Shown piece by piece: positions 1,831 through 63,900 of a DNA stretch of 64,000 nt (position 1 is its first letter; each line of letters begins with the position of its first letter). Source of the DNA: a virus; UHGV virus genome UHGV-0112899; one strand, written 5' to 3'. The notes below the pieces were generated by a model. The model was not told the origin of the DNA. It saw only the letters and a program-made list of their open reading frames with translations, and ran no database searches. The position numbers were made by a program, and so were the translations under genes.

Positions 1831-2137
1831 GTACTCTCCTTTCGAAATAAACGTACTGATTAATCATTCCCAGGGGCATTTCGAGTTTTTCTGCGATCTC
1901 ACGGCGGGGAACACCACACTGATGAAGCTGCCGCGCCAGTTCTATATCGCTCTGCCGGTATTTGGCTGACTGGTGAAAGTCTCCTTTCAGAATCATGCTG
2001 ATCCGCAGTTGCCGCGCTTTAGTCCTGACAGCACCACCGGTACGCCCGATCAGTCTCCCAATACCCTCGACTGTCATAGTCCCGGCGCACTGGCGGAGTA
2101 TCATGATTTCTGCCCTTCCCCATCCCCGCCAGCTCAC
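1820..2137 (-). CDS. hypothetical small protein with HTH-like segment
   Basis: 105-aa ORF in the same operon; helix-turn-helix-like stretch GVPRREIAEKL. Confidence 0.4.
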   Translation of the reverse strand: MSWRGWGRAEIMILRQCAGTMTVEGIGRLIGRTGGAVRTKARQLRISMILKGDFHQSAKYRQSDIELARQLHQCGVPRREIAEKLEMPLGMINQYVYFERRVHEV

Positions 2138-2745
2138 GCAGAACTCCTTCTAACCAAAAGAACGCCATCTTCAGAAACAACGTTGCAGGACTTCAGGTAA
2201 TTCATTGCCTCTTTCGGTAATGGATTCTTTGGATCGGCGCTTGCCAGGGATTTCGATAACCTCATGATAAATTTGATCATTACCTTCTGACGGAGCTTGT
2301 GCTCATGAGATGCAGACAGGTAATAGGAAATGGTATGGGCTAAACGCTCACGAAGCTGTTCTGTGCCGTGATATACAGCAGCGATATCACGCAGTGCATT
2401 GACCAGTTCCCGGTAAATATGCGGAGCAACCTGGCATTCAATGTTGGTTGGTGACTCATAAATTACATTCAGCCCCAGCTTTTGAGCCAGCTCGTGCTCT
2501 GCACGAGCGCCAACTGATTCCTCCCACCCCTTGAGCAAATAGACCGCATTAGCCGAACGCACCATTGCAAGGCAAATATCCATGTATTCGCTCTGGCAGA
2601 GGCCAGCAGGTAACAGCGCCGGATTCAGAACAATATGCCCTACCTCCATCAGCTCTTTTGCTTTCGAAAAAAACGCTGTGCGGTTGTAGTCGGGATAACC
2701 AGTCATCGGACCCGCGATGTAAATTTTCATAATGCGTTTTGACAT
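2134..2745 (-). CDS. nucleoside 2-deoxyribosyltransferase-like protein (DUF4406-like)
   Basis: N-terminal MKIYIAGPMTGYPDYN motif typical of this family; ATG at 2745 with GGGGA upstream. Confidence 0.5.
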   Translation of the reverse strand: MSKRIMKIYIAGPMTGYPDYNRTAFFSKAKELMEVGHIVLNPALLPAGLCQSEYMDICLAMVRSANAVYLLKGWEESVGARAEHELAQKLGLNVIYESPTNIECQVAPHIYRELVNALRDIAAVYHGTEQLRERLAHTISYYLSASHEHKLRQKVMIKFIMRLSKSLASADPKNPLPKEAMNYLKSCNVVSEDGVLLVRRSSA

Positions 2746-2940
2746 CAAAGTTTCCCCAGGAACGTTACGCAAAAGTTGATGAGAGCAAAGAGTTCAATGC
2801 CCAGCTCAAACAACGCCAGGACAGTGAAAAACAGGGCATATAGCAACCCAATTTCTGTACCGGATTGCTGGTGGATTGCACTTATTGCGACAAGCATCAT
2901 GACCTCCTGATATAGCGTCTGAAAAAAAGTATCTTCATTT

Positions 2941-2974
2941 TGTGTTAGAAAATCAATTTTGATTTTCTAACACA
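2941..2974. promoter_or_regulatory. 34-bp perfect palindrome, putative repressor operator
   Basis: tgtgttagaaaatcaa tt ttgattttctaacaca in a divergent intergenic region; half-site recurs at five other loci. Confidence 0.5.
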
Positions 2975-3017
2975 TTTGATCAACCATAGCGGCGATGTAG
3001 ACAAACCGGGTATTTCT

Positions 3018-3593
3018 ATGAAGCAAAGCTATTGGGAGAAACAGACACAAAAAGCCCTGCAAAAACTGGCTGATCCGAAATGGCGGGAGGAACAAAGGGC
3101 AAAGCGTCTTCAGCAAGCTCAACGCCAGCAGCAGCGTGCGCGAGAAAAAGCCGCATCGCCTGAATATCGGCAAAAGAAAATTGAAAAAGCGAAGCAATAT
3201 GAACAGCGAAGAAAAGAGAAGGCCGCTTCTGCTCCTGTCAAAAAAACTCGCGCGTCACGCGGCCTGAAAGGCAGAACACTCACAGCAGATGAGCGCCGGA
3301 TACAAACTGCCATCGGTGCTCTCCCCTGCATTGCCTGCCATATGCACGGACAGCATAGCCCTGTGGTATCCCTGCACCACATCTTCGGGAGAACAGCAGA
3401 GAACGCGCATAAATACGTCCTCCCTTTGTGTAAATGGCACCATCAACACGCAGCGCCAGCAGAGATCCGCGAGCAATACCCCTGGTTGGTTCCTGTTCAT
3501 GCTGATGGAAAAATAGGCGGCAAAGCAGATTTCAGGCGGCACAATGCTGATGAAATGACGTTGTATCAGATGGTGACTGAATTAATAAATTAA
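3018..3593 (+). CDS. HNH-motif protein with basic N-terminus, Ref-like (DUF968-like)
   Basis: Lys/Arg/Gln-rich N-terminal half, then CIACHMHG...HHIFG...CKWHH Cys/His cluster; ATG at 3018. Confidence 0.45.
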   Translation: MKQSYWEKQTQKALQKLADPKWREEQRAKRLQQAQRQQQRAREKAASPEYRQKKIEKAKQYEQRRKEKAASAPVKKTRASRGLKGRTLTADERRIQTAIGALPCIACHMHGQHSPVVSLHHIFGRTAENAHKYVLPLCKWHHQHAAPAEIREQYPWLVPVHADGKIGGKADFRRHNADEMTLYQMVTELIN

Positions 3594-3607
3594 TTTTCTA
3601 ACATTTT
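3592..3607. promoter_or_regulatory. operator-like motif copy
   Basis: aattttctaacatttt matches the dispersed TGTTAGAAAAT core. Confidence 0.35.
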
Positions 3608-3924
3608 AAGTTGAATTGTGAGATCCACCGTTGTACATTCACAACCGATTGGTACACCGGTCAACTTTTTGAGACAAACCGTTTGGTTTTTCGTATGATT
3701 GCCGCCGCCATACCAATGGCGGTGCAATATAGGTGGCTGAAAAGCCCCCGTTGACTCACGGTGTTCCAGCCTTTATTGCGCCGCCACCAGACCGTGGAAC
3801 AGTCGATGGCGGCTCCGAAAGCAAGGAGTCACTACACTATGAACAGCTACTGTCTTTTCCCATCACTCGTTGTCCGCCACTCACGCGATAATCTGCATTC
3901 TTTACTCGCGCTGGGGGTGTCAAA

Positions 3925-14420: not shown

Positions 14421-15326
14421 ATGAGATTAGTCGCCTTTAAAAACATATACGTCTATCGCCTTGCCCGCGAAATTAAACTGGACTCAACCACCGTTAGTGA
14501 TGCCTTAAGCCAATTCACATTCACTCCATGCGCATCACAAGAAATGGCAAAAGTCGGATGGGTGCCGGTTCTGGCTGACAACCTGATCCATGAATACCAC
14601 GGTTTTCTACTTCTCCAGCAACAGCGAGAAATTAAGCTCCTGCCCTCCCATGTCATTAAGGAGGAAGTGCAGAAAAAAGTGGAAAAGCTCGAAAATGAGC
14701 AATCTCGTAAGCTGAAGAAGTCGGAAAAAAACACCCTGAAGGATGAAGTTCTCCACTCTTTGTTGCCTCGCGCATTCACTCGCAAATCATTGTCGCGAAT
14801 CCTTATTGATCGCGACAACTATCTGGTCTTCGTAGAAGCTTCCAGCGCCAGAAAAGCAGAAGAAATGCTGGCGCTCTTACGTAAATCACTTGGCAGCCTG
14901 CCAGTGATTCCATTCACGCCGATAGAACCGCTCGAAATGACTATGACCGAATGGTTCAAGTCAACATTTCCTCAAGGCTTTAAAGCAGGCGAAGAAGCCA
15001 TATTGAAATCTCTGTTCGATGACGGCGGCGCAGTTCGTTGCAAGAAAGTAGACCTACAGTCAGAGGAAATAATGACTCATATTGAAGCCGGAAAAGTTGC
15101 AACAACAGTTGCAATCAACTGGCAGGACCGCGCGACCTTCAGGTTAAACGATGACATGAGCATCAAAGCACTGACGTTTTGCGATGATCTCTATGACCAG
15201 AACGATGACATCGACCGTGAAGATGTTGCCCAGCGATTTGATGCTGACTTCATTCTGTTCACAAGCGAATTATCCGCGATGTTTAGCTCGCTGGTGGAGG
15301 CCATTGGCGGTGAAGCAGAGCATTAA
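14421..15326 (+). CDS. rdgC: recombination-associated protein RdgC
   Basis: strong full-length similarity to E. coli RdgC (FKNIYVYRL, FTPCASQEMAKVGWVP, KLKKSEKNTLKDEVLHSLLPRAF, DREDVAQRFDADFIL). Confidence 0.85.
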   Translation: MRLVAFKNIYVYRLAREIKLDSTTVSDALSQFTFTPCASQEMAKVGWVPVLADNLIHEYHGFLLLQQQREIKLLPSHVIKEEVQKKVEKLENEQSRKLKKSEKNTLKDEVLHSLLPRAFTRKSLSRILIDRDNYLVFVEASSARKAEEMLALLRKSLGSLPVIPFTPIEPLEMTMTEWFKSTFPQGFKAGEEAILKSLFDDGGAVRCKKVDLQSEEIMTHIEAGKVATTVAINWQDRATFRLNDDMSIKALTFCDDLYDQNDDIDREDVAQRFDADFILFTSELSAMFSSLVEAIGGEAEH

Positions 15327-15342
15327 TAACCGACCGCTGGCG

Positions 15343-15990
15343 GTGAGTCTTTGTGATTATACAGGGAATATGGTTTCCCCCTGGCTGGAACACGGCATTG
15401 ATGCAGTCATTGTCGATCCGCAACACCAGGAGTCCGGCAGCCAATTGATGGAGTCAGGTGCTGTACTCACACGTATCAGCGCAATTATTGACAGTGATGA
15501 GGTCTACAATTTCCTTCGGAAAAATTTGCACAGAGTTGTATTTTTAGCCGGTTTCCCTCCATGTACTGACCTGGCTGTATCTGGCGCACGCTGGTTCGCA
15601 GATAAAGCAAAAAAAGATCCGGTTTTCCAGTTCAAAGCAATGCAGGTTGTCTGGCAGTGTTACGACATTGCAAAGATGATTGGTTGCCCGTACATGATTG
15701 AAAACCCGGTCAGCCAAATATCGACATTCTGGCGTAAACCTGATCACATATTCCATCCTTATCACTTCACTGCATATTGCAAGGAAGACAATTACACCAA
15801 AAAAACATGCCTGTGGAGCGGACAAGGATTCATCATGCCAACTCCGCGAATCGACAAGTCGTTAGGTGATCCAGATAACCGAATACACAAGGCACCGCCA
15901 GGGCCTGAAAGAGCGAATTTTCGTAGCGCGACACCTTACGGTTTTGCAAGAGCTGTATTTGAAGCAAATAAGGAGGGAATCCGTGGCTGA
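15343..15990 (+). CDS. short C5-cytosine methyltransferase-like protein
   Basis: GFPPCTDLAVSGARW (PC-motif-like) and MIENP (ENV-like); only ~215 aa; start GTG 15343 or ATG 15370. Confidence 0.3.
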   Translation: MSLCDYTGNMVSPWLEHGIDAVIVDPQHQESGSQLMESGAVLTRISAIIDSDEVYNFLRKNLHRVVFLAGFPPCTDLAVSGARWFADKAKKDPVFQFKAMQVVWQCYDIAKMIGCPYMIENPVSQISTFWRKPDHIFHPYHFTAYCKEDNYTKKTCLWSGQGFIMPTPRIDKSLGDPDNRIHKAPPGPERANFRSATPYGFARAVFEANKEGIRG

Positions 15991-16900
15991 TATTGGTGCT
16001 AAATTTATTTCTTATAGCGACAATCATCGTCCTGCGGCGGAAGCCACTATCAGCCATATGCGACGTATTCGCTCGGAGGACGAATTTGATCGCCCAGTCT
16101 TTAAGTGGGTCGGCGGCAAATTTTCTGCACTGCCCATTATCTTCGAACACCTGCCCCACGGAAAACGGTTGATAGAACCTTTCGTTGGAGGTGGCGCTGT
16201 TTTCACTAATGCCGGATTTAAAAGCAACCTGCTGAACGATATCAATAATGACCTGATTAACTTCTATCAGACATTGCAGCGTGAAGGGCATTCTCTTATC
16301 ACACTGGCATATCGTTTTTTTCAGGATTACAACTCTGCTGATGCATTTTTGAATGTTCGCAATGCATTCAACAATGGTGCTTATGATTCCCTTCACCATG
16401 CAGCGGCGTTCCTGTATCTCAATCGTCATTGTTTTAATGGCGTCACTCGCTATAACCGTAAAGGAGAGTTCAACGTCGGATATGGAAAGCAGAAATCACC
16501 CCACTTCCCTCTCGCGGAAATGGAGGCGTTCCTGGCTGACGATATTTCAAAGTATTCGGAATTTGTGTCCGGCGATTTTGCTGGTGTAATTGAGGCTGCC
16601 GGGAATGATGATGTGATTTTCTGCGATCCCCCCTATGAACCATTGCCCGACACTACCGGATTTACAAATTACTCAGGGCATAGCTTTAGGTTTGAAGATC
16701 AACAACGGCTGGTGTCACTGCTGGTGGATGCCCACAGACGCGGAGCGAAAATTGTGATAACAAACAGTGGTGCGCCTAACATTCGCGAACTTTACGTTGG
16801 CAATGGCTTCAAGGTGTATCCTATGCCATCCCGTCGCTCTGTATCCTGTAAAGCATCAACGCGAATGATAGCTAACGACATTATAGCCACACTTAATTAA
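15983..16900 (+). CDS. dam: DNA adenine methyltransferase (Dam family)
   Basis: FKWVGGKFS, EPFVGGGAVF, FLYLNRHCFNGVTRYN, DPPY motifs; GTG start after AAGGAGGG. Confidence 0.85.
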   Translation: MADIGAKFISYSDNHRPAAEATISHMRRIRSEDEFDRPVFKWVGGKFSALPIIFEHLPHGKRLIEPFVGGGAVFTNAGFKSNLLNDINNDLINFYQTLQREGHSLITLAYRFFQDYNSADAFLNVRNAFNNGAYDSLHHAAAFLYLNRHCFNGVTRYNRKGEFNVGYGKQKSPHFPLAEMEAFLADDISKYSEFVSGDFAGVIEAAGNDDVIFCDPPYEPLPDTTGFTNYSGHSFRFEDQQRLVSLLVDAHRRGAKIVITNSGAPNIRELYVGNGFKVYPMPSRRSVSCKASTRMIANDIIATLN

Positions 16901-16901
16901 G

Positions 16902-16926
16902 AAAAGCCCCATATGGGGCTTTTATA
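16902..16926. terminator. bidirectional rho-independent terminator
   Basis: stem aagcccc/ggggctt with atat loop flanked by A/T runs; between convergent dam and partition operons. Confidence 0.6.
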
Positions 16927-16939
16927 ACATCAAACAAGC

Positions 16940-17030
16940 ACCGTTACGGTACACTAACAACACCATTCTGGTACTAAAAAGGAATCAAAGTAGCCTCAAA
17001 ATAACACATGGACCCAAAACGGTGTCATTC
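16940..17030. repeat. partition-site-like repeats (two direct, one inverted copy of CACCNTTNNGGTAC)
   Basis: caccgttacggtacactaa, caccattctggtactaaa and inverted gacccaaaacggtg; related copy at 18149-18176. Confidence 0.4.
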
Positions 17031-17035
17031 CGGCG

Positions 17036-17323
17036 TCATTTTGTATCCTCAGACTCTGCAAGCATGAGGATAGCATGGCGGATCATATTCAATTTGCTGC
17101 GATTATGCTTTTTGCTTAACGCATCAAGTACCTGGTACTCGTATTCATTGAAGCCAACACGAATGGATTTAAAATCACGTGGGGCGTCCTTATCGAGCAC
17201 TTTGTTGTCTTCTGGTTGCTCACCCGGCACCAAATCAGCTTTGCTGGCAAAAGCCTCAATTCGGCGTTCAAGATCGAGGTCTTTTACTTCGGGGGCTTTT
17301 ACCGATTTACGAGGCTTAATCAC
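17036..17323 (-). CDS. ParG-like ribbon-helix-helix partition protein
   Basis: 95 aa; C-terminal RHH-like segment; GTG start after AAGGAG; coupled to the upstream ATPase. Confidence 0.55.
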   Translation of the reverse strand: MIKPRKSVKAPEVKDLDLERRIEAFASKADLVPGEQPEDNKVLDKDAPRDFKSIRVGFNEYEYQVLDALSKKHNRSKLNMIRHAILMLAESEDTK

Positions 17324-17957
17324 TTAATAACTCCTTAACCAACATCTGGATTTCACCTTTAGCTTTCCCGTTGTCCATCTCAACAACGCCCTTCCCTTCA
17401 GCCATACAATCGCGGTAAACCTTGCGATCGCGAATGATGGTTTTCAGCAACTTCAGTTGCGGATATTCAGCCAGGTACTCTTTGGCCTCATTGGCTTCAT
17501 TCACAACCGGATTGGATGGGGCCATTGTTAAAACTGCGCACGCCTTAATGCTAGGATTAGGCATCAGATCCAAAGCCTCTTCAAAGACTTCAACAAAATG
17601 CGCCAGCGTGTCTAAATCTGGCTGAGATGGCCTGAATGGAACAAGCAAAACATCCGCCGCAGTAATACCGGTGCGCATCTCTTTGCTATCACGACCAGCG
17701 GTATCAACAACCACAAATTCATAACGCTTGTCCAGATCAAGAAGTGTTTCACGAATATTCCCAAACTTCTGGACGCAATGAATTACTGGAGAAACCTCTG
17801 CCGCATTACGGTCCGATGCCCAACGGGCAGATGTTCCTTGCTTATCTGCATCAAGTAGAACTACGTCCTTATTTGCGCGGGCAAGCTCCGCACAAATGTT
17901 TACGCTGGTGGTTGATTTGCCACAGCCACCTTTTTGGCTGGCTACCAATATAATCAT
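17316..17957 (-). CDS. parA: ParA/ParF-type partition ATPase
   Basis: deviant Walker A ASQKGGCGKSTT; 213 aa (small type Ib ParA). Confidence 0.8.
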   Translation of the reverse strand: MIILVASQKGGCGKSTTSVNICAELARANKDVVLLDADKQGTSARWASDRNAAEVSPVIHCVQKFGNIRETLLDLDKRYEFVVVDTAGRDSKEMRTGITAADVLLVPFRPSQPDLDTLAHFVEVFEEALDLMPNPSIKACAVLTMAPSNPVVNEANEAKEYLAEYPQLKLLKTIIRDRKVYRDCMAEGKGVVEMDNGKAKGEIQMLVKELLSD

Positions 17958-18099
17958 ATCCGTCCCTCGGTGTTATTTTGGTATCAAAATGGCTCCAAAC
18001 AGAAGCCTTATTGATGCGGTTTTGGCTCTATAGTGGAGTCACTATGCTTTGCAAAAGTATAACACTAAACACTCGAAATTTGCCCTCTGTTGCATCCTG

Positions 18100-18176
18100 T
18101 TTAACACGAAATCAGCCTCAAAGTGGAACCAGACACAAAACAGCACCACAACAACACCGTTTTGGTACTAAAAGAG
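18100..18176. repeat. partition-site-like repeat upstream of the ParF-like gene
   Basis: caacaacaccgttttggtactaaaagag matches the motif at 16957-16983. Confidence 0.4.
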
Positions 18177-18200
18177 CACCAAATTAGAACCATAACAGTA

Positions 18201-18224
18201 TAAAAAAGGCTGCAAATTGCAGCC
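18201..18224 (-). terminator. rho-independent terminator (minus strand)
   Basis: stem ggctgca/tgcagcc with 3-nt loop; followed by T-run on the minus strand. Confidence 0.6.
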
Positions 18225-18242
18225 TTTGAAGATGTAGATTTG

Positions 18243-18608
18243 TTAATCAGGGAGTGAGTTTGCCAAATTCTGTGCAGAGCGGCTTTTCGAAACGCCAGGT
18301 TTTTTAACATCCGCTGAGGCTGAGGGGTTTCCTTCAGGGTTTTCCCGAACTTCAGGCGAAATTTCAAGAAATGAAACCAGCATTTTTCTGATCACTTCAG
18401 GGCTATTATCACCGGATAAAAGCGATGCCAACATGGGAGGTAATCTGCTATCAACCTCGCCAAGAGCGATACCTGCAAGCATCGCTGTGCGCGCCATATC
18501 ATTGCGATCTCTTAATGGATGGCCCTCAAGTTTTGCATCAGCATATTGCTCACTGGCGTTAAGACCAGGACGAAGATAAAACAATACTTTTCGACGTTCC
18601 TGAGACAT
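18243..18608 (-). CDS. parR: ParR/StbB-like partition adaptor
   Basis: 121-aa ORF immediately downstream of parM; assignment by position and size. Confidence 0.5.
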   Translation of the reverse strand: MSQERRKVLFYLRPGLNASEQYADAKLEGHPLRDRNDMARTAMLAGIALGEVDSRLPPMLASLLSGDNSPEVIRKMLVSFLEISPEVRENPEGNPSASADVKKPGVSKSRSAQNLANSLPD

Positions 18609-18618
18609 GGCAACCTCA

Positions 18619-19578
18619 TCAACCGATAGATTTTAGACCATAGACAAGAGCAAGTTGTGGATCATCAGCAACGAAAAACCTATCGTCACGAATGTTTACC
18701 TGCTCACGGATAGCATCAGCAACAAGCGGCGCGCCGCCACCAATGACCATAACATGCGTGTATCCTTTGAAATCACTGATCACATCCAGTACGCGTGTAC
18801 GGAGTCGTTCTATGCTTGACGAAATGGCTTTCTTAACATCATCAATAGCAGACGGATCGTTAATATTGTCGGTCAAATAATCCTCATCATCACGATTAAT
18901 GATTAATTGATCGACATTATAATTAGAGGTTTCGGTATTCGCTTTTGCAAGTGCCTGTCTGACCTCTTTAGTTACCAGCGAAACGCCGAGATTAGAATCG
19001 CCAAATACGCGAGAAACGGCGGTCATTTGCCCGGCGACCATCGACACATCCAGAGTAGTCCCACCAAGATCAACAATAAGCACAGAATGCGCTGGCACAA
19101 GGCTGTCGCACAGACCGATCCCTGCGGGTATTGACTCCGGGCGCACAGTCACTTTTTTGATAGTAAAAACCTGACCTTTGTTAAGGGTGACTGGTCGCAT
19201 CAGGCTGGCCTTTTTCCGCTCAATATTTTTCATGTTGTATTGTGCGTCGTCGTCATAAAACTCTGCCAGTGGCAACGTGACAACTATTTCCACTTCTTGA
19301 GGCTCAATGCCACTTGTAAGCAGGGCATGATGAACAGCAAGCACATTAAGCGGGCTGTATTGCCATTCCACATTATTCGTCGGCAGCACATCCGGCGAAA
19401 TCAAGTCATATGAATATTTTTCGTCATCAATGATGTAGTTAAACGGCTTTCCTGCGCCAAATGTGGCGGACCATCCACGTTTAAAACTGTTCGGACAGAT
19501 ATGGGTTCGAGTTTCCCCGTCTTGTTCCCACAGCATTTTGATATTGGTAGAACCATCGTCGATAAAAATGCGCATCAT
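18619..19578 (-). CDS. parM: ParM/StbA actin-like partition ATPase
   Basis: N-terminal MRIFIDDGSTNIKM and VDLGGTTLDV, VIGGGAPL actin-fold motifs; 320 aa from ATG 19578. Confidence 0.75.
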   Translation of the reverse strand: MMRIFIDDGSTNIKMLWEQDGETRTHICPNSFKRGWSATFGAGKPFNYIIDDEKYSYDLISPDVLPTNNVEWQYSPLNVLAVHHALLTSGIEPQEVEIVVTLPLAEFYDDDAQYNMKNIERKKASLMRPVTLNKGQVFTIKKVTVRPESIPAGIGLCDSLVPAHSVLIVDLGGTTLDVSMVAGQMTAVSRVFGDSNLGVSLVTKEVRQALAKANTETSNYNVDQLIINRDDEDYLTDNINDPSAIDDVKKAISSSIERLRTRVLDVISDFKGYTHVMVIGGGAPLVADAIREQVNIRDDRFFVADDPQLALVYGLKSIG

Positions 19579-19589
19579 ATTGCTCCACT

Positions 19590-19770
19590 TCTGAGACACA
19601 TTTGAGAAAGAATTGAATTTTATATGAGAAAACAAAATAAGACCAGAAGTTAGATAGCGTAAAAAGCATCAAACTAGAGACGTAAAAGAGACACAAAAGA
19701 GACTTAGATGATACATGATGTACCCATGATACCCTTTTGAGACAAATCAGAGACAAATATGAGAAGTAAG
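19590..19770. repeat. parC-like centromere: two clusters of ~11-bp GAGAC(A/G) iterons
   Basis: agagacgtaaa/agagacacaaa/agagacttaga and ttgagacaaatc/agagacaaata/tgagaagtaag flanking a central segment, upstream of parM. Confidence 0.5.
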
Positions 19771-19827
19771 AAATCTGAAGAGTGAAAATCACAAAGTGGA
19801 GAAGATTTAAGAAAAAGGAGGTGTTAG

Positions 19828-20112
19828 ATGAGTGCAATAGCGACCAGTGACACAGTTTGTTCTGGTCATGGAGGATTCCCTCCGCGACCTGTAGCAGAAA
19901 CAGTTTCCTGGTTTACCGTAAATGGAAAGCCAGTAGTTGTAGATGGGGGAGCGTTCCCCAGCCATACAGACGGAAATAGCGCGCACCCCGGATCAGCCGT
20001 ATCGACGCGCTCATGGTTTGCAATAGGCGGGAAAGGAGTTGTTTGTGTGGGAGATCCCCTTTCTTGTGGCTCAGTCATCGCCAATGGTGAGGCAATTTTT
20101 CAGGTGTCATAA
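19828..20112 (+). CDS. PAAR-like spike-tip protein
   Basis: 94 aa; VGDPLSCGSVIANGEAIF and CSGHGGFPP motifs; AGGAGG RBS. Confidence 0.4.
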   Translation: MSAIATSDTVCSGHGGFPPRPVAETVSWFTVNGKPVVVDGGAFPSHTDGNSAHPGSAVSTRSWFAIGGKGVVCVGDPLSCGSVIANGEAIFQVS

Positions 20113-29741: not shown

Positions 29742-30035
29742 TGAGGGCAATATCTACACCTGCTGTTTACGTCAATGATGGCATTTTTTACACATCACAA
29801 CAAAATCAACGCGTTACAACCATAAAACATTCAACAGTAGTGCGATAAAAATAGCTATAGCATACGATGCCATCTGAGGGTGATTTTTACACATTCCTTA
29901 TTAATCAATAAATTACAAATAATGTTAGCCGTTAAAGATCCAACCAACTAACTAATGATGTAAGAATTGCCCTCAATCTCCCATCTTTAAGGGCAAATCC
30001 TACACCTACAGAGAGGTGTAGAAATTGCCCTTAAG
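29742..30035. repeat. control-type iterons downstream of rep (incA-like), mixed orientation
   Basis: tgagggcaatatctacacct, tgagggtgatttttacaca, inverted gatgtaagaattgccctca, and inverted pair ttaagggcaaatcctacacct/aggtgtagaaattgcccttaa. Confidence 0.6.
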
Positions 30036-30786
30036 ACTGCTGATAGGTGAATTTTATTTTTGTAACTCTGCCACCTTCTGTAACCTCTGAGAAAACTATT
30101 TTCATTTTTGTGTTTTTTTCGATTTCAGCTACAGCTTTTGCCAGAAAGCTTCTCTTAAATTCGGCGTACCGTTGATAGCTTTTGGGAAGACCATAACGCT
30201 CCCGCATCCATTCAACGCCAAGTATAGCGAAGCCGCTCCCATCATCCTTTCTATACTGGCATAAGGACTCATAAAGCCGCATAGAATAAGGGTTTGTCAG
30301 GCGAGACACTTCAGTAAAATTCAGCCTCGTGAACCTCTTATCAAGCAGAGTAAAAAACGGCATGAGATATGGATTCAGATGAATAATGTAAGTCCCCCGG
30401 CGTGGTGAGTAAGCCTCCTTAATCATCCAGGGATAAGACTCATAACTGTCTTCTGATTCGGTTGATTCATCAGGGTTATATATCGTGACTTTCTTCTCAC
30501 TAAGTCCGGAGATAGCTTTACGAATATCCTTGCTGGCTTCAGCAGAGGGCAAATTATACATCTCTGCATATTCGTTGACCGTCAACTCACAGGCACCTGA
30601 ACCAAGAACGCCATCCTTAGAAGCATAGCGAAGTCTTCCCACCACAATAAACAACAGTCGCTTTTGGTCGCGTGTCAGGTGATAAGCCGCCTCTGTGATC
30701 TCATTGGCCTGCGCCAAGCTACGGCTAATTGGTGTCGCTGATTCAATCAGACTGACGGCTTTTGCCGTTAATTCCGCTCTGTTCAT
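30031..30786 (-). CDS. repE: replication initiator, Rep_3 family (RepE-like)
   Basis: strong similarity to F-plasmid RepE (TEAAY..RDQKR, NPYSMRLYESLCQYRK.DGSG, PKSYQR); 251 aa from ATG 30786. Confidence 0.85.
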   Translation of the reverse strand: MNRAELTAKAVSLIESATPISRSLAQANEITEAAYHLTRDQKRLLFIVVGRLRYASKDGVLGSGACELTVNEYAEMYNLPSAEASKDIRKAISGLSEKKVTIYNPDESTESEDSYESYPWMIKEAYSPRRGTYIIHLNPYLMPFFTLLDKRFTRLNFTEVSRLTNPYSMRLYESLCQYRKDDGSGFAILGVEWMRERYGLPKSYQRYAEFKRSFLAKAVAEIEKNTKMKIVFSEVTEGGRVTKIKFTYQQS

Positions 30787-30810
30787 AACCCTGTGTGATC
30801 CTTCAAATGG

Positions 30811-30930
30811 TGAGGGCAATTTTTACATCACTTTGAGGGCAATTACTACACCTTTTGAGGGCAAATCTTACACCTGCTGAGGGCAAATCTTACACCTCAA
30901 TAGCTTAATTGAGGGCAAATCTTACACCTT
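30811..30930. repeat. origin iterons: five direct repeats of TGAGGGCAAATCTTACACCT
   Basis: copies start at 30811, 30834, 30856, 30879, 30911 with mostly 22-23 bp spacing. Confidence 0.8.
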
Positions 30931-30959: not shown

Positions 30960-31069
30960 CTCCGCGATGCCTAAAAAGGATCTAAAAAGGATTAAAAAGA
31001 GAAAAAGGTTTATAAAAATACTCTGTGGATATGTGAATTGCGTCACTTAAGGTGTAAAAATCACCCTCA
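30960..31069. other. origin-associated AT-rich region, DnaA-box-like site and inverted iteron
   Basis: A-rich 30975-31020; TGTGGATAT (31024-31032, 8/9 to DnaA box); inverted iteron aggtgtaaaaatcaccctca at 31050-31069. Confidence 0.5.
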
Positions 31070-39136: not shown

Positions 39137-42100
39137 ATGTGCGCAGATAAAGTAAAGAACATTGTCACCTTATCTTCGGACATTTCCGCTCCACTAATTG
39201 CAGACATGCAATACTTTGAGCTGTATAGCACCGAAGCTCTAAACAGGAAGATGAAAAATATCGTTCTGCCCGGTGTGTACTGTGGGTTTGAACCGGTGCC
39301 AGGGGATGGCCTGTTTGTGCGGATTACATCCGAGAAAACAGAGGGAAGAGGGGCGGCTTCAGTTGACGTGGGTAAATGTCAGATATCCGTGCAGCAAGTC
39401 AGTGATGTTGTTGTTCCTGTAGAAGCAGGTGTAACGACAATCATCGTTCTTGAAGCTAATTACGAACATGGAGTGAAAACCAGCCAGGTAGATAGTTCAT
39501 CGGATATTAGCGCAGCGAGAATTATAGCTCTCGTTGATGAGGGCATAGCATCTAACCAGATTGAGCTATGCCGAGTGATCGTGCCTGACAATGCTCAAGC
39601 CGTTACCGCAGATATGATTAGCACTAAATATCGCGCTAATCGTGCTGTAGGTGTTGAGTTCTCCAGTGCTTTGGATAGTGACGAAGAATATAAAGCTGCA
39701 ACCCCCCTTGCTATCAGCACGTTAAATAAACTTAAAGCTCCGGTTGATAGCCCGGAATTTATAGGTATCCCTACATCTCCAACTCCGGAACAAGGTACAA
39801 ACAGTACACAAATCGCAAACGCTGCCTTTGTTCAGGCCGCTATAACCGCACTTATTGATGGTTCTCCTTCAGCGTTGGATACGCTGAAAAAAATTGCAGA
39901 TGCAATAAACAATGATCCCCAGTTTAGCCAGACGATTAATGATGCTTTAGCTCTTAAAGCGCCGTTATTAAGCCCGGCATTTACGGGGGTTCCAACAGCT
40001 CCTACGGCGTCACAAGGTACGAACAACACTCAGATTGCAACAACCGCTTATGTTCGTGCCGCTATTTCTGCATTGGTCGGCTCATCACCAGAAGCTCTTG
40101 ATACTCTTAATGAGCTTGCTGCGGCGCTGGGCAATGACCCGAACTTTGCGACTACAATGACAAATGCCCTGGCAGGTAAGCAGCCTCTCGACGCAACCTT
40201 AACCGCGCTCGCTGGCCTGGCGACGGGGGCAAATAAATTACCGTACTTTACCGGAACAGACACTGTAGCCCAGACTGATTTAACGTCAGTCGGTCGCGAT
40301 ATTCTTGCTAAAACAAGCACACTGGCTGTTATCCAATACCTTGGTTTAAGAGAACTCGGAACCAGCGGAGAAAAGCTCCCCCTGTTGAGCACAGCTAATA
40401 CCTGGAGTGCACGCCAGACTTTCAGCGCGGGGATCACTGGTACGCTGACCGGGAACGCCGATACTGCGACGAAATTAAAAACAGCCAGAAAGATTAACGG
40501 TGTGGCATTTGATGGGTCGGCAGATATTACTCTGACCCCTGAAGATCTTGGCTTAACGGATATTGCTTCTCAAGCTGGTAACGCAGTTCAGCGTTCTGGC
40601 GACACAATGGGGGGGCAGCTAAAAATTGGCACAATAAATGCCCTTCGAATATTTAACCAGGACTTTGGCCTTATCTTCAGGAGATCCGAGGAATATCTTC
40701 ATCTTATCCCGACAAATGAAGGGGAGGGTGAAAATGGTGACATCGGGCCATTAAGACCATTTTCTATAAACTTAAGAACTGGGTTGGTGTCCATCGGTAA
40801 CGGCGTAAAAGTTGGCGGTGGTATTACTGGTAATTTGACGGGAAACGCAGATACTGCCACAAAGCTCAAGACAGCTCGAACGATCGGCGGAGTGTCATTT
40901 GATGGCAGCGCCAATATCGACCTGCCTGGCGTGAATAAAACGGGTAATCAGAGCACTACCGGCAATGCTGCAACCGCAACGAAACTTCAGACGGCAAGAA
41001 CAATCGGCGGGGTGGCATTTGATGGCACTGCCAATATCAACCTGCCGGGTGTGAACATTGCTGGTAACCAGAACACAACAGGTAATGCTGCAACCGCTAC
41101 AAAACTGCAAACAGCCCGCACAATCAACGGTGTTAAGTTTGATGGTTCTGCGAACATTTCGATACCAACAATTACGTCCAGAGGGCGTGTTACTGCGCTC
41201 ACCAGTACAACGCAAGGTGCTACTACTGGATTGCAGATGTATGAGGCGTACAACAACGGCTATCCTTCTGCTTACGGGAATGTGCTTCATCTTAAGGGCG
41301 CAGCTGCCGCTGGTGAAGGCGAGTTGTTCATAGGTTGGAGCGGTACAAGTGGTGCTCATGCGCCTGTACATGTACGTTCACGACGAGATGCTGATACAGC
41401 CAGTTGGTCTGAGTGGGCGCAGGTCTACACATCGAAAGATTCCATCCCTGGTGTAAATACCACGGGCAACCAGAACACAACTGGGAACGCGGCGTCTGCA
41501 ACGAAATTACTAACGGCAAGAACTATTGGTGGTGTTTCATTTAATGGCACCGCAAATATCGACCTGCCGGGCGTGAATAAAACAGGTAATCAGAGCACTA
41601 CCGGCAATGCTGCAACTGCAACGAAACTTCAGACGGCACGCACAATCGGCGGGGTTTCGTTTGATGGTACAGCAAACATCAATCTTCCGGGCGTTAATAT
41701 TGCCGGAAATCAAAATACAAGTGGTAATGCAGCTACAGCGACAAAGTTAAAAACTGCCAGAAAAATAAGTGGAGTGGCTTTTGATGGTTCTGCAGACATC
41801 AGATTAACGGCAAGTCATGTTGGTGCGTTACCAACAACAGGTGGTACTGTTACCGGTGAAATTATATCCAGCAGCCAAAATGCTATACGCCTAACTTATA
41901 ATAATAACTATGGATTCCTAATAACTAATACTGGATATAGTTTCCAGATATCAACCACTGGGCAAAATGTTAATGGTGATGTCGTTTACACTCCATTAAA
42001 GATAGATGGCGGTGATGGTCGCGTAGAATTAGGACGTGCTGATGGTCATGTAAGGGTTATGGGGAATTTATCTGCCGCTGGTCAGATTACCCCTGGTAAC

Positions 42101-60900: not shown

Positions 60901-63900
60901 TGTGGAAATGGGGCGTCTTGACCTGGCATCTGGCAAACACCGTGACGCGCAGAAGAAGAACAAAATTAAGGACCAGGCCGCAAATACCGGTACAACGAAG
61001 AAGCAGAATATCCCGTACTTTGAGGATATGAACTTCGATAGCGTGATAGCCGACGAAGGGCATAACTACCGCAACTCCTTTAGCGCCGGGCGCGAAGCGG
61101 GGCAACTGGCATATTTGCCTAACCCGGCAGTATCCAAAATGGCTCGTGATATGGCTGTAAAAGCTGCGTACATGATGAAACGCAACAACGGGCGTGGTGT
61201 GGTTATGCTGACGGCAACACCGCTGGTGAACAGCCCGATTGATGCTTTCAACATGCTGTCTACTGTCATTCCGCAGGAAGAGTGGATGCGCATGGGCATC
61301 ATTACGCCGGATGATTTCGTTCGCGTGTTCGGTAAAACAGCCACAGTTCAGGTTCAGAAAATTTCCGGTGAGGTGGAAGAGAAGCAGGGGCTGGTGGGCT
61401 TCCAGAACCTGGATGGTCTGCGTGGTATTTTCCATCGCTGGACTACTCTGAAGACTGCTGCGGACGTCGGGGCGACGGTAAAAATCCCTGATATTGTCGA
61501 GAATACCTTGCAGATCCCGATGACAGGAGAGCAAGAGGCCATTTACGAAGAACTTCGTAAGCGTGCACAGGAGTTAAGTAGTAAAGATGCGCTGACGGTC
61601 GATGAAAACGGGCATATCACAAACGAAAAACCGGATGATTTCATCTTCTCCATCATCCGCGACATGGATAAGGTTGCTATAGATCCTGATCTGTATGCCA
61701 GTGCGATTACATTCCAGTTCCCCGTTGAGCTTGCAGACAAGGTAAAAGCTATTGCTGATGCCCTGCCAAAAGTAGCTGGCGGTAAAGTGGCAGATGATGC
61801 GGACGAGGCCGAAGAAGATGGCGCTGGTGGGCTGGTCAGTACGCGTACCAGCAAGGTAGTGAAGACCACCTTTAGCGAACATCCGTCGCATGTTGAAATA
61901 CGTGCTGGCATTGAACTGGAAGCTGAAATACTGAAGGCCATTGCGGCTGCCGGTATTGATATGCAGCAGGTATCACACCCCATCCCGCCGAAGTATGCCG
62001 CGCTGATCGAAAACCTTCGTGAAGGTCTGAAGAACGGTAAACAAATCGTCTTCATTGATGAAAAAGCCCAGCACCAGAAGCTGCGCCGTATTATTGCCAG
62101 TGCACTGCAAATGCCGGAGCAGGAGATAGGCATTATCAATGCGACGACAGTTAGCCAGGCTGGCGGCGTCAAGCTGAAGAAGGTGAATAAGCCGACTGAA
62201 CCTACGCCAAATAAAAACGGTGAATACAAAGAAGGCGCATGGGAAACCTACTACAGCAAACTTGCCCAATATGAGGATTATCTCTCAGCTAAAAATGATG
62301 CTGGCCTTGAGGGCATGGAAGGTATTGCCGCCGACTATAACGAAGGTCGCACGCGCATCATAATCTGTAACAAGAAGGCTGAAGTAGGTATTAACTTGCA
62401 CATCGGGACAACCGATATCCACCATCTGACACTACCCTGGACTCCTGCCAGTATCGACCAACGTAATGGGCGCGGCGCTCGGGTAGGCTCACCACAAGAA
62501 AAGGTCAATGTTCACTACTATTGTGGCAAAGGCACATTTGATGACTTCCGTCTGGATACGCTGAAACGTAAGAAGGACTGGATCAATATGGTGATGACCT
62601 CCGACATGTCAGAGATCGCCAATGGTGATGCGGATGACGCAGATGAACGCGCCATTATGCTGGCGGCAAATCCGGAAGAACGCCGTGCAATCATGAGTCG
62701 TCAGGCGCAAGAGCGTGAAGAACGTCTGAAACTGAAAGCCCTACGCGAAGCCAATAATGCTCTCGATAACTACCTGAAAGCGGCGAATGCTGCCGGGAAA
62801 GATATCGGCATGATGGAGACAGAACTGAAAAGCGCGATGGAGCAGGTAGAGCATTACCAGCGCAATCTTGACGACCTGATTAAAGCGGGGACGAACAGGA
62901 ACGGGCAGAAATATGTTCTGGAACAGTTGCGAGACTACAGAAAACGTGTGCGGGAGCTACGCTTTGCGATCACCAGAGCTAAAGACGCTGACACCGTTAT
63001 GAAACGTTCTCGTGGTGATCTGGAACGTGCGATTAAAGCCGGGGTTCTGGAGCTTGATGCCGATGTATTGCAGAACCCACAGGAGTATGTACGCACTGAG
63101 AAAAATATCTTGTTGCACAAGGACAGCCATTATCGCGCGATCATCGATGAGAATCACAATACGACAGCAATTGTTCGTGTTACCGCCATTGATGCGGAAA
63201 GGGGCGGGTGTACGTGCCGCATATCCTGGCTGGATGTGGCTAGTCGTTACTCTCGTTCTCCGGGTACGGCATTATTTTTGCCCTTTAACCTGATAATTGA
63301 ATCGGTAACCTTTGAAGAGGGAGTTGCAGAATCGCGTGAAACAGCTGCACGTGGTGTTCAATGCCACCAGCTATCAACAACACTTACGCGCGATCAGTTC
63401 TATGATGCTATTCGCAATGGGGTAATGAATGTCACTGCCGGGAAGCCTGGTAGAGTATGGGGCGGTGGTTCAGCTATTAAATACTGGGCTTATCGCACCG
63501 ATGATGGTCAGATTGCACTGTCATCGGCTTATGATGGCGTAATAGGTCAAAAAATCGGGCGAGCATCGGATATAGCGCCTGAGCGGTGGATTTACCCTGA
63601 TGGCAACGATGAGGCGCTGAAGCGTGAAGTGGCAAAAATACAAGCCAGTGATAACCCGCTGAATATCGTGGACGGCGAGGGATTCCTCCAGGCATTGTAT
63701 GGGTATGATTACATCCAGGGAATGCAGGCATGGGGCGCACAGGCAACGATGGATGATGTTGTCCAGGAGTTCGAAAACTGGATGGCTGGGCGTGGTCTGT
63801 CAGGTCGTTCGCTTAATAAAGTCACTTCTGAAGATATTCTTAGCTTGTTCCGCAAACCGTCCGGAGAAGGTCTGGAATCATTCTGGAGGACCGTGCTGGC

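Follow-up and report, generated by a model that had tools for sequence, protein, structure and literature searches.

The 64,000-nucleotide stretch of the virus genome UHGV-0112899 analyzed here (referred to below as the window) carries on its minus strand a region that very probably serves plasmid maintenance (segregation) in a D6-like phage-plasmid, consisting of two complete, separately transcribed partition cassettes arranged in tandem: a type II system (ParM/ParR) and a type Ib system (a short ParA ATPase with a small ribbon-helix-helix (RHH) partner). The original prediction had proposed two different, neighboring partition systems with separate repeat arrays, and all four open reading frames (ORFs) were found where it had placed them. 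The evidence consists of the identities of the genes, the fold of the type Ib adaptor, a terminator between the cassettes, the arrays and their phasing, the conservation of the region in related elements and purifying selection on the genes. At the level of sequence, the region has every feature expected of a type II and of a type Ib system, and lacks those specific to the pB171 family.

The type II cassette

The type II cassette comprises parM (stbA; 18619..19575, minus strand), encoding an actin-like ATPase of 318 aa, and parR (stbB; 18243..18608, minus strand), encoding an adaptor of 121 aa and starting 10 nt past the parM stop codon. Both identities proposed earlier were borne out by Pfam and PDB matches. 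ParM possesses both ParM/StbA domains (StbA_N, 2e-69; ParM_N, 9e-56) and aligns over its full length with the structures of R1 ParM (E = 2e-110, 54% identity); its translation shows the motifs DDGSTNIK, DLGGTTLD and GGGA, as expected for an ATPase of the actin fold. ParR, located directly downstream of parM as is characteristic of type II adaptors, matches the Pfam family Plasmid_stab_B (E = 3e-14), and its only solved relative in PDB is the ParR of pB171 (2jd3, E = 4e-7).

Upstream of parM lies a candidate parC-like centromere/operator (19593..19771, minus strand), which contains twelve 11-bp units ending in (G)TCTC. These form three groups of four (19593-19636, 19677-19720 and 19728-19771), spaced by a 40-bp core (19637-19676) and a 7-bp spacer; all are in-register 11-mers, and TRF also reports period-11 repeats here. 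The pentamer GAGAC occurs six times in the 252-bp stretch upstream of parM, against 0.19 occurrences expected (Poisson P = 5e-8). The GAGACA iterons that had been noticed at this place are thus real, although they form three clusters and not the two described. An array of direct repeats of ~10-11 bp upstream of parM is a hallmark of type II systems, and the clustered 11-bp direct repeats resemble those of the parMRC (stbAB) loci of R1 and NR1. In R1, parC is made up of ten 11-bp iterons, five on either side of the promoter. The window differs from this 5+5 arrangement in its three groups of four and in the sequence of its iterons. Furthermore, a TAAAAT hexamer conserved in phage D6 and in a further relative (L005) is located inside the proximal group of units; given this conservation in the two elements, it is a candidate -10 element of the parM operon, which would then lie within the proximal group and not in the central core as in R1.

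Directly 3' of parR, a terminator scan revealed a strong intrinsic terminator (18227..18205, minus strand) with a 10-bp stem, a 3-nt loop and a T-run, which is conserved in D6 and L005. This argues for two transcription units, and the possibility that the four genes constitute a single operon was rejected on these grounds.

The type Ib cassette: a short ParA and a candidate RHH adaptor

The second cassette begins with parA (17316..17957, minus strand), encoding a protein of 213 aa with the deviant Walker A motif KGGCGKST and no N-terminal DNA-binding extension. An in-frame stop codon precedes the first start codon, and the ATPase therefore cannot be longer than that. It matches the Pfam families AAA_31, MipZ, CbiA, VirC1 and ParA, aligns end to end with TP228 ParF (PDB 4dzz, 206 aa; E = 3e-18), and covers positions 1-203 of the 203 positions of the NCBIfam model ParA_partition with 158 bits. 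The small Walker-type ATPase, previously called ParF-like, is accordingly a short (~200-220 aa) deviant-Walker-A protein of the ParF/pB171-ParA kind.

The adaptor candidate, a protein of 95 aa (17036..17323, minus strand), is encoded directly downstream of parA, as is usual for small RHH partners of type Ib ATPases; its gene has a GTG start and an AAGGAG ribosome-binding site and overlaps parA by 8 nt. The protein has a basic N-terminus (MIKPRK; family consensus MxKxR), a helix at residues 15-29 and a C-terminal RHH domain at residues ~50-92. As a single sequence it gave no match in Pfam, NCBIfam or PDB (in the last case no hit at E <= 10), and a homologue search returned close relatives only. 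The fold was settled only through 101 distant representatives, a profile and a structure model: the AlphaFold model and the Pfam hits of the relatives bear out the RHH assignment made earlier. A profile of 93 family members produced only weak RHH hits in PDB (HP0222, CopG); at the level of the fold, NikR, antitoxins and CopG match best.

The earlier label "ParG-like" holds for the fold and the role, not for the sequence. TP228 ParG is likewise small, its N-terminus being flexible or basic and its RHH domain C-terminal. However, neither the single-sequence nor the profile search of PDB returned ParG, and no solved chain, TP228 ParG (1P94) included, is detectably similar in sequence to the 95-aa protein. 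Its comparison with pB171-type ParB likewise revealed no homology (BLASTP E = 2.1; hhalign probability 0.5%), and a profile comparison of its family with pESBL-type ParB showed no similarity. The protein and its ~100 relatives are annotated solely as "hypothetical", and this family of RHH adaptors is as yet unnamed.

11-bp-phased repeat arrays flank the type Ib operon

The original prediction had noted copies of CACCNTTNNGGTAC on both sides of the type Ib operon. Even with one mismatch allowed, this sequence matches the 64-kb window at no more than three places (16939, 16961 and 18155), all of them within the two non-coding stretches flanking the ATPase operon, and each proved to be part of a larger, 11-bp-phased array. 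The downstream array (16922..16976, minus strand) consists of the five units TAGTACCAGAA / TGGTGTTGTTA / GTGTACCGTAA / CGGTGCTTGTT / TGATGTTATAA, is centromere-like, includes two of the CACCNTTNNGGTAC copies and is enriched in half-sites (P = 0.002-0.007); arrays in the same position are present in D6, L005, Serratia and Acinetobacter. An isolated inverted copy of the motif, CACCGTTTTGGGTC (17026..17013, minus strand), a near-copy of CACCNTTNNGGTAC, is found 10 nt past the stop codon of the RHH gene. Upstream of the operon there are two arrays on the minus strand. The proximal one (17964..18029) adjoins the parA ribosome-binding site and comprises six degenerate 11-bp-phased units (..GGAGCCATTTT / GATACCAAAAT / AACACCGAGGG), and its half-sites are oriented opposite to those of the distal one. 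The distal array (18127..18192) comprises the six 11-bp units TGGTTCTAATT / TGGTGCTCTTT / TAGTACCAAAA / CGGTGTTGTTG / TGGTGCTGTTT / TGTGTCTGGTT; it contains the third CACCNTTNNGGTAC copy as well as a 38-nt stretch 82% identical to 16956-16993.

The phasing was assessed by comparing the self-identity at lag 11 with that of 2000 shuffled sequences. The z-scores were 3.1 for the non-coding stretch 16924-17035, 5.0 for 17958-18204 and 5.6 for 19576-19780, with harmonics at lags 22 and 33. For the individual upstream arrays, the values were 3.5 at lag 11 for 17958-18040 (proximal) and 3.4, 2.6 and 3.1 at lags 11, 22 and 33 for the distal array. Among the 25 most 11-bp-periodic 110-nt segments of the 64 kb, 20 are inside these three non-coding stretches of the par region. 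A further 110-nt stretch with unusually high self-similarity at lags 11 and 22 is located near the end of the window (~63781-63890). As a control, the same method picked up, at lag 8 (z = 9.5), the octamer repeats already published for the IncI1 pESBL-type locus.

Short-repeat arrays on both sides of the parA-RHH operon are what is expected of a type Ib system: arrays upstream and downstream are typical of such systems and have been described for pB171, pSM19035 and pESBL (PMC7602700). We considered whether the CACC...GGTAC copies could be chance matches or a terminator hairpin and rejected both possibilities because the phased array recurs upstream. The hairpin listed by the scan at 16952..16938 is one unit of the phased array and not a terminator. 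Next to the downstream array there is a perfect palindrome (16902..16923; 11+11, AAAAGCCCCAT/ATGGGGCTTTT, 100% complementary), which probably acts as a terminator in both directions, for the dam gene on the plus strand as well as for the parA-RHH operon on the minus strand. No RNA family was found by Rfam in 16800-19900.

Between the two upstream arrays, the 9-mer TGTTATACT (18056..18064, minus strand) is identical in D6 and L005, although the neighboring spacer diverges. We regard it, in view of this conservation, as a candidate extended -10 element of the parA operon promoter, although the consensus scan does not report it; the sole minus-strand hit of the sigma-70 scan overlaps the parA start codon.

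The cassette in other replicons

The ATPase-RHH pair is found beside a replication initiator gene, with no parMR adjacent, in plasmids of Aeromonas, Acinetobacter and Arsenophonus. It is also present in Serratia, and in Moraxella the tblastn hits had an ATPase gene under the match. By the same lag analysis, the flanks of the cassette are phased at 11 bp on both sides in D6, L005 and Serratia, upstream in Aeromonas, and downstream in Acinetobacter (where the upstream signal is weak, z = 2.3), but no 11-bp phasing was detected at the flanks of the Arsenophonus cassette. The half-sites in the Serratia, Aeromonas and Arsenophonus flanks (GGTACC, GCACC, AGTAC) are similar by eye only.

The region belongs to a D6-like phage-plasmid

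The par region (2.95 kb) is 99.7% identical to the E. coli plasmid NZ_LR890273 (92.8 kb, non-mobilizable), and altogether 122 plasmids of ~90 kb from Escherichia, Salmonella, Shigella and one Enterobacter match it. In a search of a phage collection, two records of Escherichia phage D6 were the only matches (82% identity). From 14.9 to 23.6 kb, the window is collinear with D6 at 75-83% nucleotide identity, and the par locus of NZ_LR890273 is surrounded by genes for phage tail, baseplate, capsid, RdgC and Dam methylase. Collinearity with D6 and structural genes around the locus are characteristic of D6-like (P1-g2) phage-plasmids, and judged by its sequence the window is a D6-like (P1-related) phage-plasmid. 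The very low copy number suggested earlier is plausible for a prophage of the P1/D6 type.

D6 and the plasmid pYU39_89 share the four genes with the window, and neither the gene order nor the genomic position differs. The D6 counterparts, orf58-orf61, are annotated as "partition protein" (twice), ParA-like and hypothetical, and the GenBank copy of D6 (MF356679) names the two "partition proteins" as StbA-type and StbB-type plasmid stability proteins. For the D6-like Salmonella plasmid pYU39_89, an existing annotation lists "cop, parA, stbB and parM" (PMC6799933). A detailed examination of three relatives (NZ_LR890273, D6 and L005) showed all four genes in identical tandem order (3/3); the remaining D6-like records align across most of the par locus, and both cassettes are listed wherever the records are annotated. 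In one plasmid, pSa1423-90k (NZ_MK356557), the DNA of the par region is homologous and yet hardly any of its ORFs are intact; this suggests poor-quality sequence, probably with sequencing errors, rather than real gene decay, and the plasmid was excluded from the comparisons.

Comparison with known double partition loci

The pairing of a type Ib with a type II system was described in the original prediction as uncommon, which proved wrong: it is already well known, with pB171 as the paradigm, and fairly common. The combination of a type I system with RHH-ParB and a type II system ranks among the three most frequent dual arrangements and is present in 971 PLSDB accessions (PMC13245405).

A close relative with the same divergent locus, pO86A1, served as a stand-in for pB171 in the comparison. 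There, too, a type II and a type Ib system stand side by side (par1, parMRC; par2, parA-parB with parC1 and parC2), and the type Ib operon has repeat arrays upstream and downstream, as in the window. The proteins of the window are 42% (ParM), 33% (ParR) and 43% (ParA) identical to those of pO86A1, whereas the small adaptor has neither sequence nor profile similarity to pB171-type ParB. In pB171 and pO86A1 the operons diverge from a shared parC1 region, which in this family allows for cross-talk in regulation between par1 and par2; in the window both operons run in the same direction on the minus strand, separated by a terminator, and divergent operons around a shared parC1 are not found. The phasing is 11 bp in the window and 7/14 bp in pO86A1, and the host replicon is a phage-plasmid instead of an IncF virulence plasmid. 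The locus thus departs from that of pB171 in its tandem layout, its unrelated family of RHH adaptors, its 11-bp phasing and its phage-plasmid host.

The other type Ib systems compared differ from that of the window in their sites. TP228 has ACTC tetramer boxes upstream of the operon and is not known to have any downstream, unlike the 11-bp-phased GGTGC/GTACC units on both sides in the window. In the type Ib par of IncI1 pESBL, as seen in pMS20649B, ParA is 45.5% identical to the window ParA, but the adaptor is unrelated at profile level and the repeats have a lag of 8 instead of 11 bp. The pESBL adaptor has ~100 aa and no homology to known ParBs, and its operon has arrays of octamer repeats upstream and downstream (PMC7602700).

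Proposed functioning of the two cassettes

Protein-array pairing, autoregulation and the stabilizing effect of each cassette are inferred from R1, pB171, TP228 and pESBL. By analogy with these systems, dimers of ParR would cover the array of twelve GTCTC-type 11-bp iterons that precedes parM, and the resulting ParR-parC complex would cap growing ParM filaments, which would push sister plasmids apart and so stabilize the plasmid; binding of ParR at parC probably also autoregulates the parM operon. The 95-aa RHH protein would bind the 11-bp-phased GGTGC/GTACC-type arrays on both sides of its operon, and its basic N-terminus would stimulate the ATPase activity of the short, nucleoid-bound ParA, so that the plasmid might be carried along ParA gradients and stably inherited. 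The two upstream arrays lie on either side of the candidate promoter, and binding of the RHH protein to them may autoregulate the parA-RHH operon. As the candidate -10 elements (TGTTATACT and TAAAAT) lie between or within arrays, both adaptors would be autorepressors.

Several observations weigh against the proposed reading. The 158 bits of ParA are below the curated NCBIfam cut-off of 180; the 95-aa protein resembles none of the characterized type Ib centromere-binding proteins in sequence, whether in PDB searches or in profile comparisons; the enrichment of the half-sites GYACC/GGTRC, taken alone, is moderate (P = 0.002-0.05); the sigma-70 consensus scan called no credible promoter for either operon; and the accessible literature gave no experimental work on the present locus or on that of D6. 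One may ask whether the ParA-like ATPase and the RHH protein serve in partition at all, or are instead a pair for transcriptional or copy-number control, or position something other than the plasmid. The sub-cut-off score of ParA would fit this explanation, as would the frequent role of RHH proteins as plain repressors, the fold matches to NikR, antitoxins and CopG, and the "cop" gene listed next to parA in the annotation of pYU39_89 (PMC6799933). Nevertheless, ParA matches ParF and pB171 ParA over its full length, homologous cassettes adjoin rep genes in unrelated plasmids, and phased arrays, a type Ib hallmark, flank the operon, whereas a simple repressor needs an operator at the promoter only. 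We consider a function outside partition very improbable.

Divergence of the two modules

The mosaic origin suggested in the original prediction is supported by the discordant divergence of the two modules among D6-like elements. Between the window and D6, nucleotide identity is 92% for parA and 94% for the RHH gene, but 80% for parM, 66% for parR and 67% for parC, with 75-83% in the backbone; the corresponding amino acid identities are 96% for ParA, 96% for the RHH protein, 94% for ParM and 62% for ParR, the two ParR proteins differing by a 9-aa indel as well. Between D6 and L005 the relation is reversed (parM 97%, parR 96%; parA 84%, RHH gene 73%). The layout of the parC units is the same in the window, D6 and L005, whereas their sequence differs, with GTCTC in the window and TTCTC, ATCTC or CTCTC in D6. 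The parR/parC allele of the window occurs in only seven PLSDB plasmids, whereas an RHH allele at least 90% identical to that of the window is present in 94 of 123 records. This minority variant comprises parR (18243-18608) and the distal parC iterons (19637-19771), and blastn misses the majority, D6-type allele. Discordant divergence and allele counts together imply separate histories of the two modules. The sequences mark parR/parC as a hot-spot of diversification, and the minority variant looks like a swap of centromere specificity, which fits selection on such specificity.

All four par genes are under strong purifying selection (dN/dS 0.01-0.13; 0.01 for parM), which argues that both cassettes are in use. 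The alternative, that one cassette alone segregates the plasmid, while the other is kept mainly for incompatibility with, or exclusion of, related phage-plasmids or as a back-up for particular hosts or conditions, draws on other dual-par plasmids, in which one system often dominates in the laboratory (e.g. SCP1, R27, pINV; PMC13245405). The hyper-divergent and rare parR/parC (66-67% identity to D6, seven PLSDB records) is also the outcome expected from selection on specificity. On the other hand, the four genes are intact as well as strongly selected, and NZ_LR890273, D6 and L005 have kept both cassettes. In pB171, moreover, both systems reportedly stabilize plasmids. Segregation by one cassette alone therefore appears unlikely to us, and two working cassettes remain the preferred reading. 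Somewhat more credible, though still tentative and rather doubtful, is the idea that each cassette is a specificity (incompatibility) module that can be exchanged independently of the other. The present element combines a common ParA-RHH with a rare ParR/parC, and D6 and L005 have parMRC in common but not ParA-RHH. With two systems, a phage-plasmid lineage could replace or diversify one centromere specificity, and thereby escape partition incompatibility with co-resident relatives, while active segregation would never be lost.

Genomic neighborhood

The plasmid replicon of the window (30031-30897) encodes a RepE-like initiator of 262 aa (minus strand; NCBIfam RepE, 6e-84), followed by approximately four 22-bp iterons (30811-30897) and an 11-bp repeat (30971-30999). 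Its distance from par is ~11 kb, and this element therefore does not have its replication and partition functions next to each other. Directly past the parC repeats and divergent from parM, a 94-aa PAAR-motif protein is encoded (19828-20112; Pfam PAAR_motif, 6e-7), which according to the D6 annotation is a homologue of P1 upfC. On the other side of the par region there are two overlapping ORFs (15184-16900). The longest ORF (15866-16900) matches the Pfam family of D12-class N6-adenine methyltransferases; its counterpart in NZ_LR890273 is annotated as Dam and ~117 nt shorter. The upstream ORF (15184-15990) may encode a second DNA methyltransferase, as annotated for its D6 homologue. Downstream of the cassette, D6 has a glutaminyl-tRNA synthetase gene (glnS-like; 2069-3730 of the D6 sequence used here, L002) that separates dmt from the RHH gene. 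The window lacks this gene, and 135 bp lie between the end of its Dam gene and the RHH gene.

In NZ_LR890273, a HigB toxin and a helix-turn-helix (HTH) antitoxin are annotated within the block of tail/baseplate genes, ~6-6.6 kb before par (2439-3104 of the segment used, L001). Such a pair is a post-segregational killing system and would hide plasmid loss in stability assays. Finally, a 120-bp tandem repeat (2.2 copies, 76% match, TRF score 318) at 40859-41125 of the window may lie within a gene.

Implications

The present findings leave the current understanding of plasmid partition unchanged. The 95-aa protein and its ~100 relatives could be named as a type Ib family of RHH centromere-binding proteins with a GGTGC/GTACC-type site and 11-bp phasing. 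D6-like phage-plasmids, which plasmid-typing tools often overlook, occur widely in E. coli, Shigella and Salmonella. Known centromeres and adaptors would provide handles for typing, for the prediction of incompatibility and for the curing of these phage-plasmids, and the discordant divergence of the two modules represents a small natural experiment on the evolution of partition specificity.

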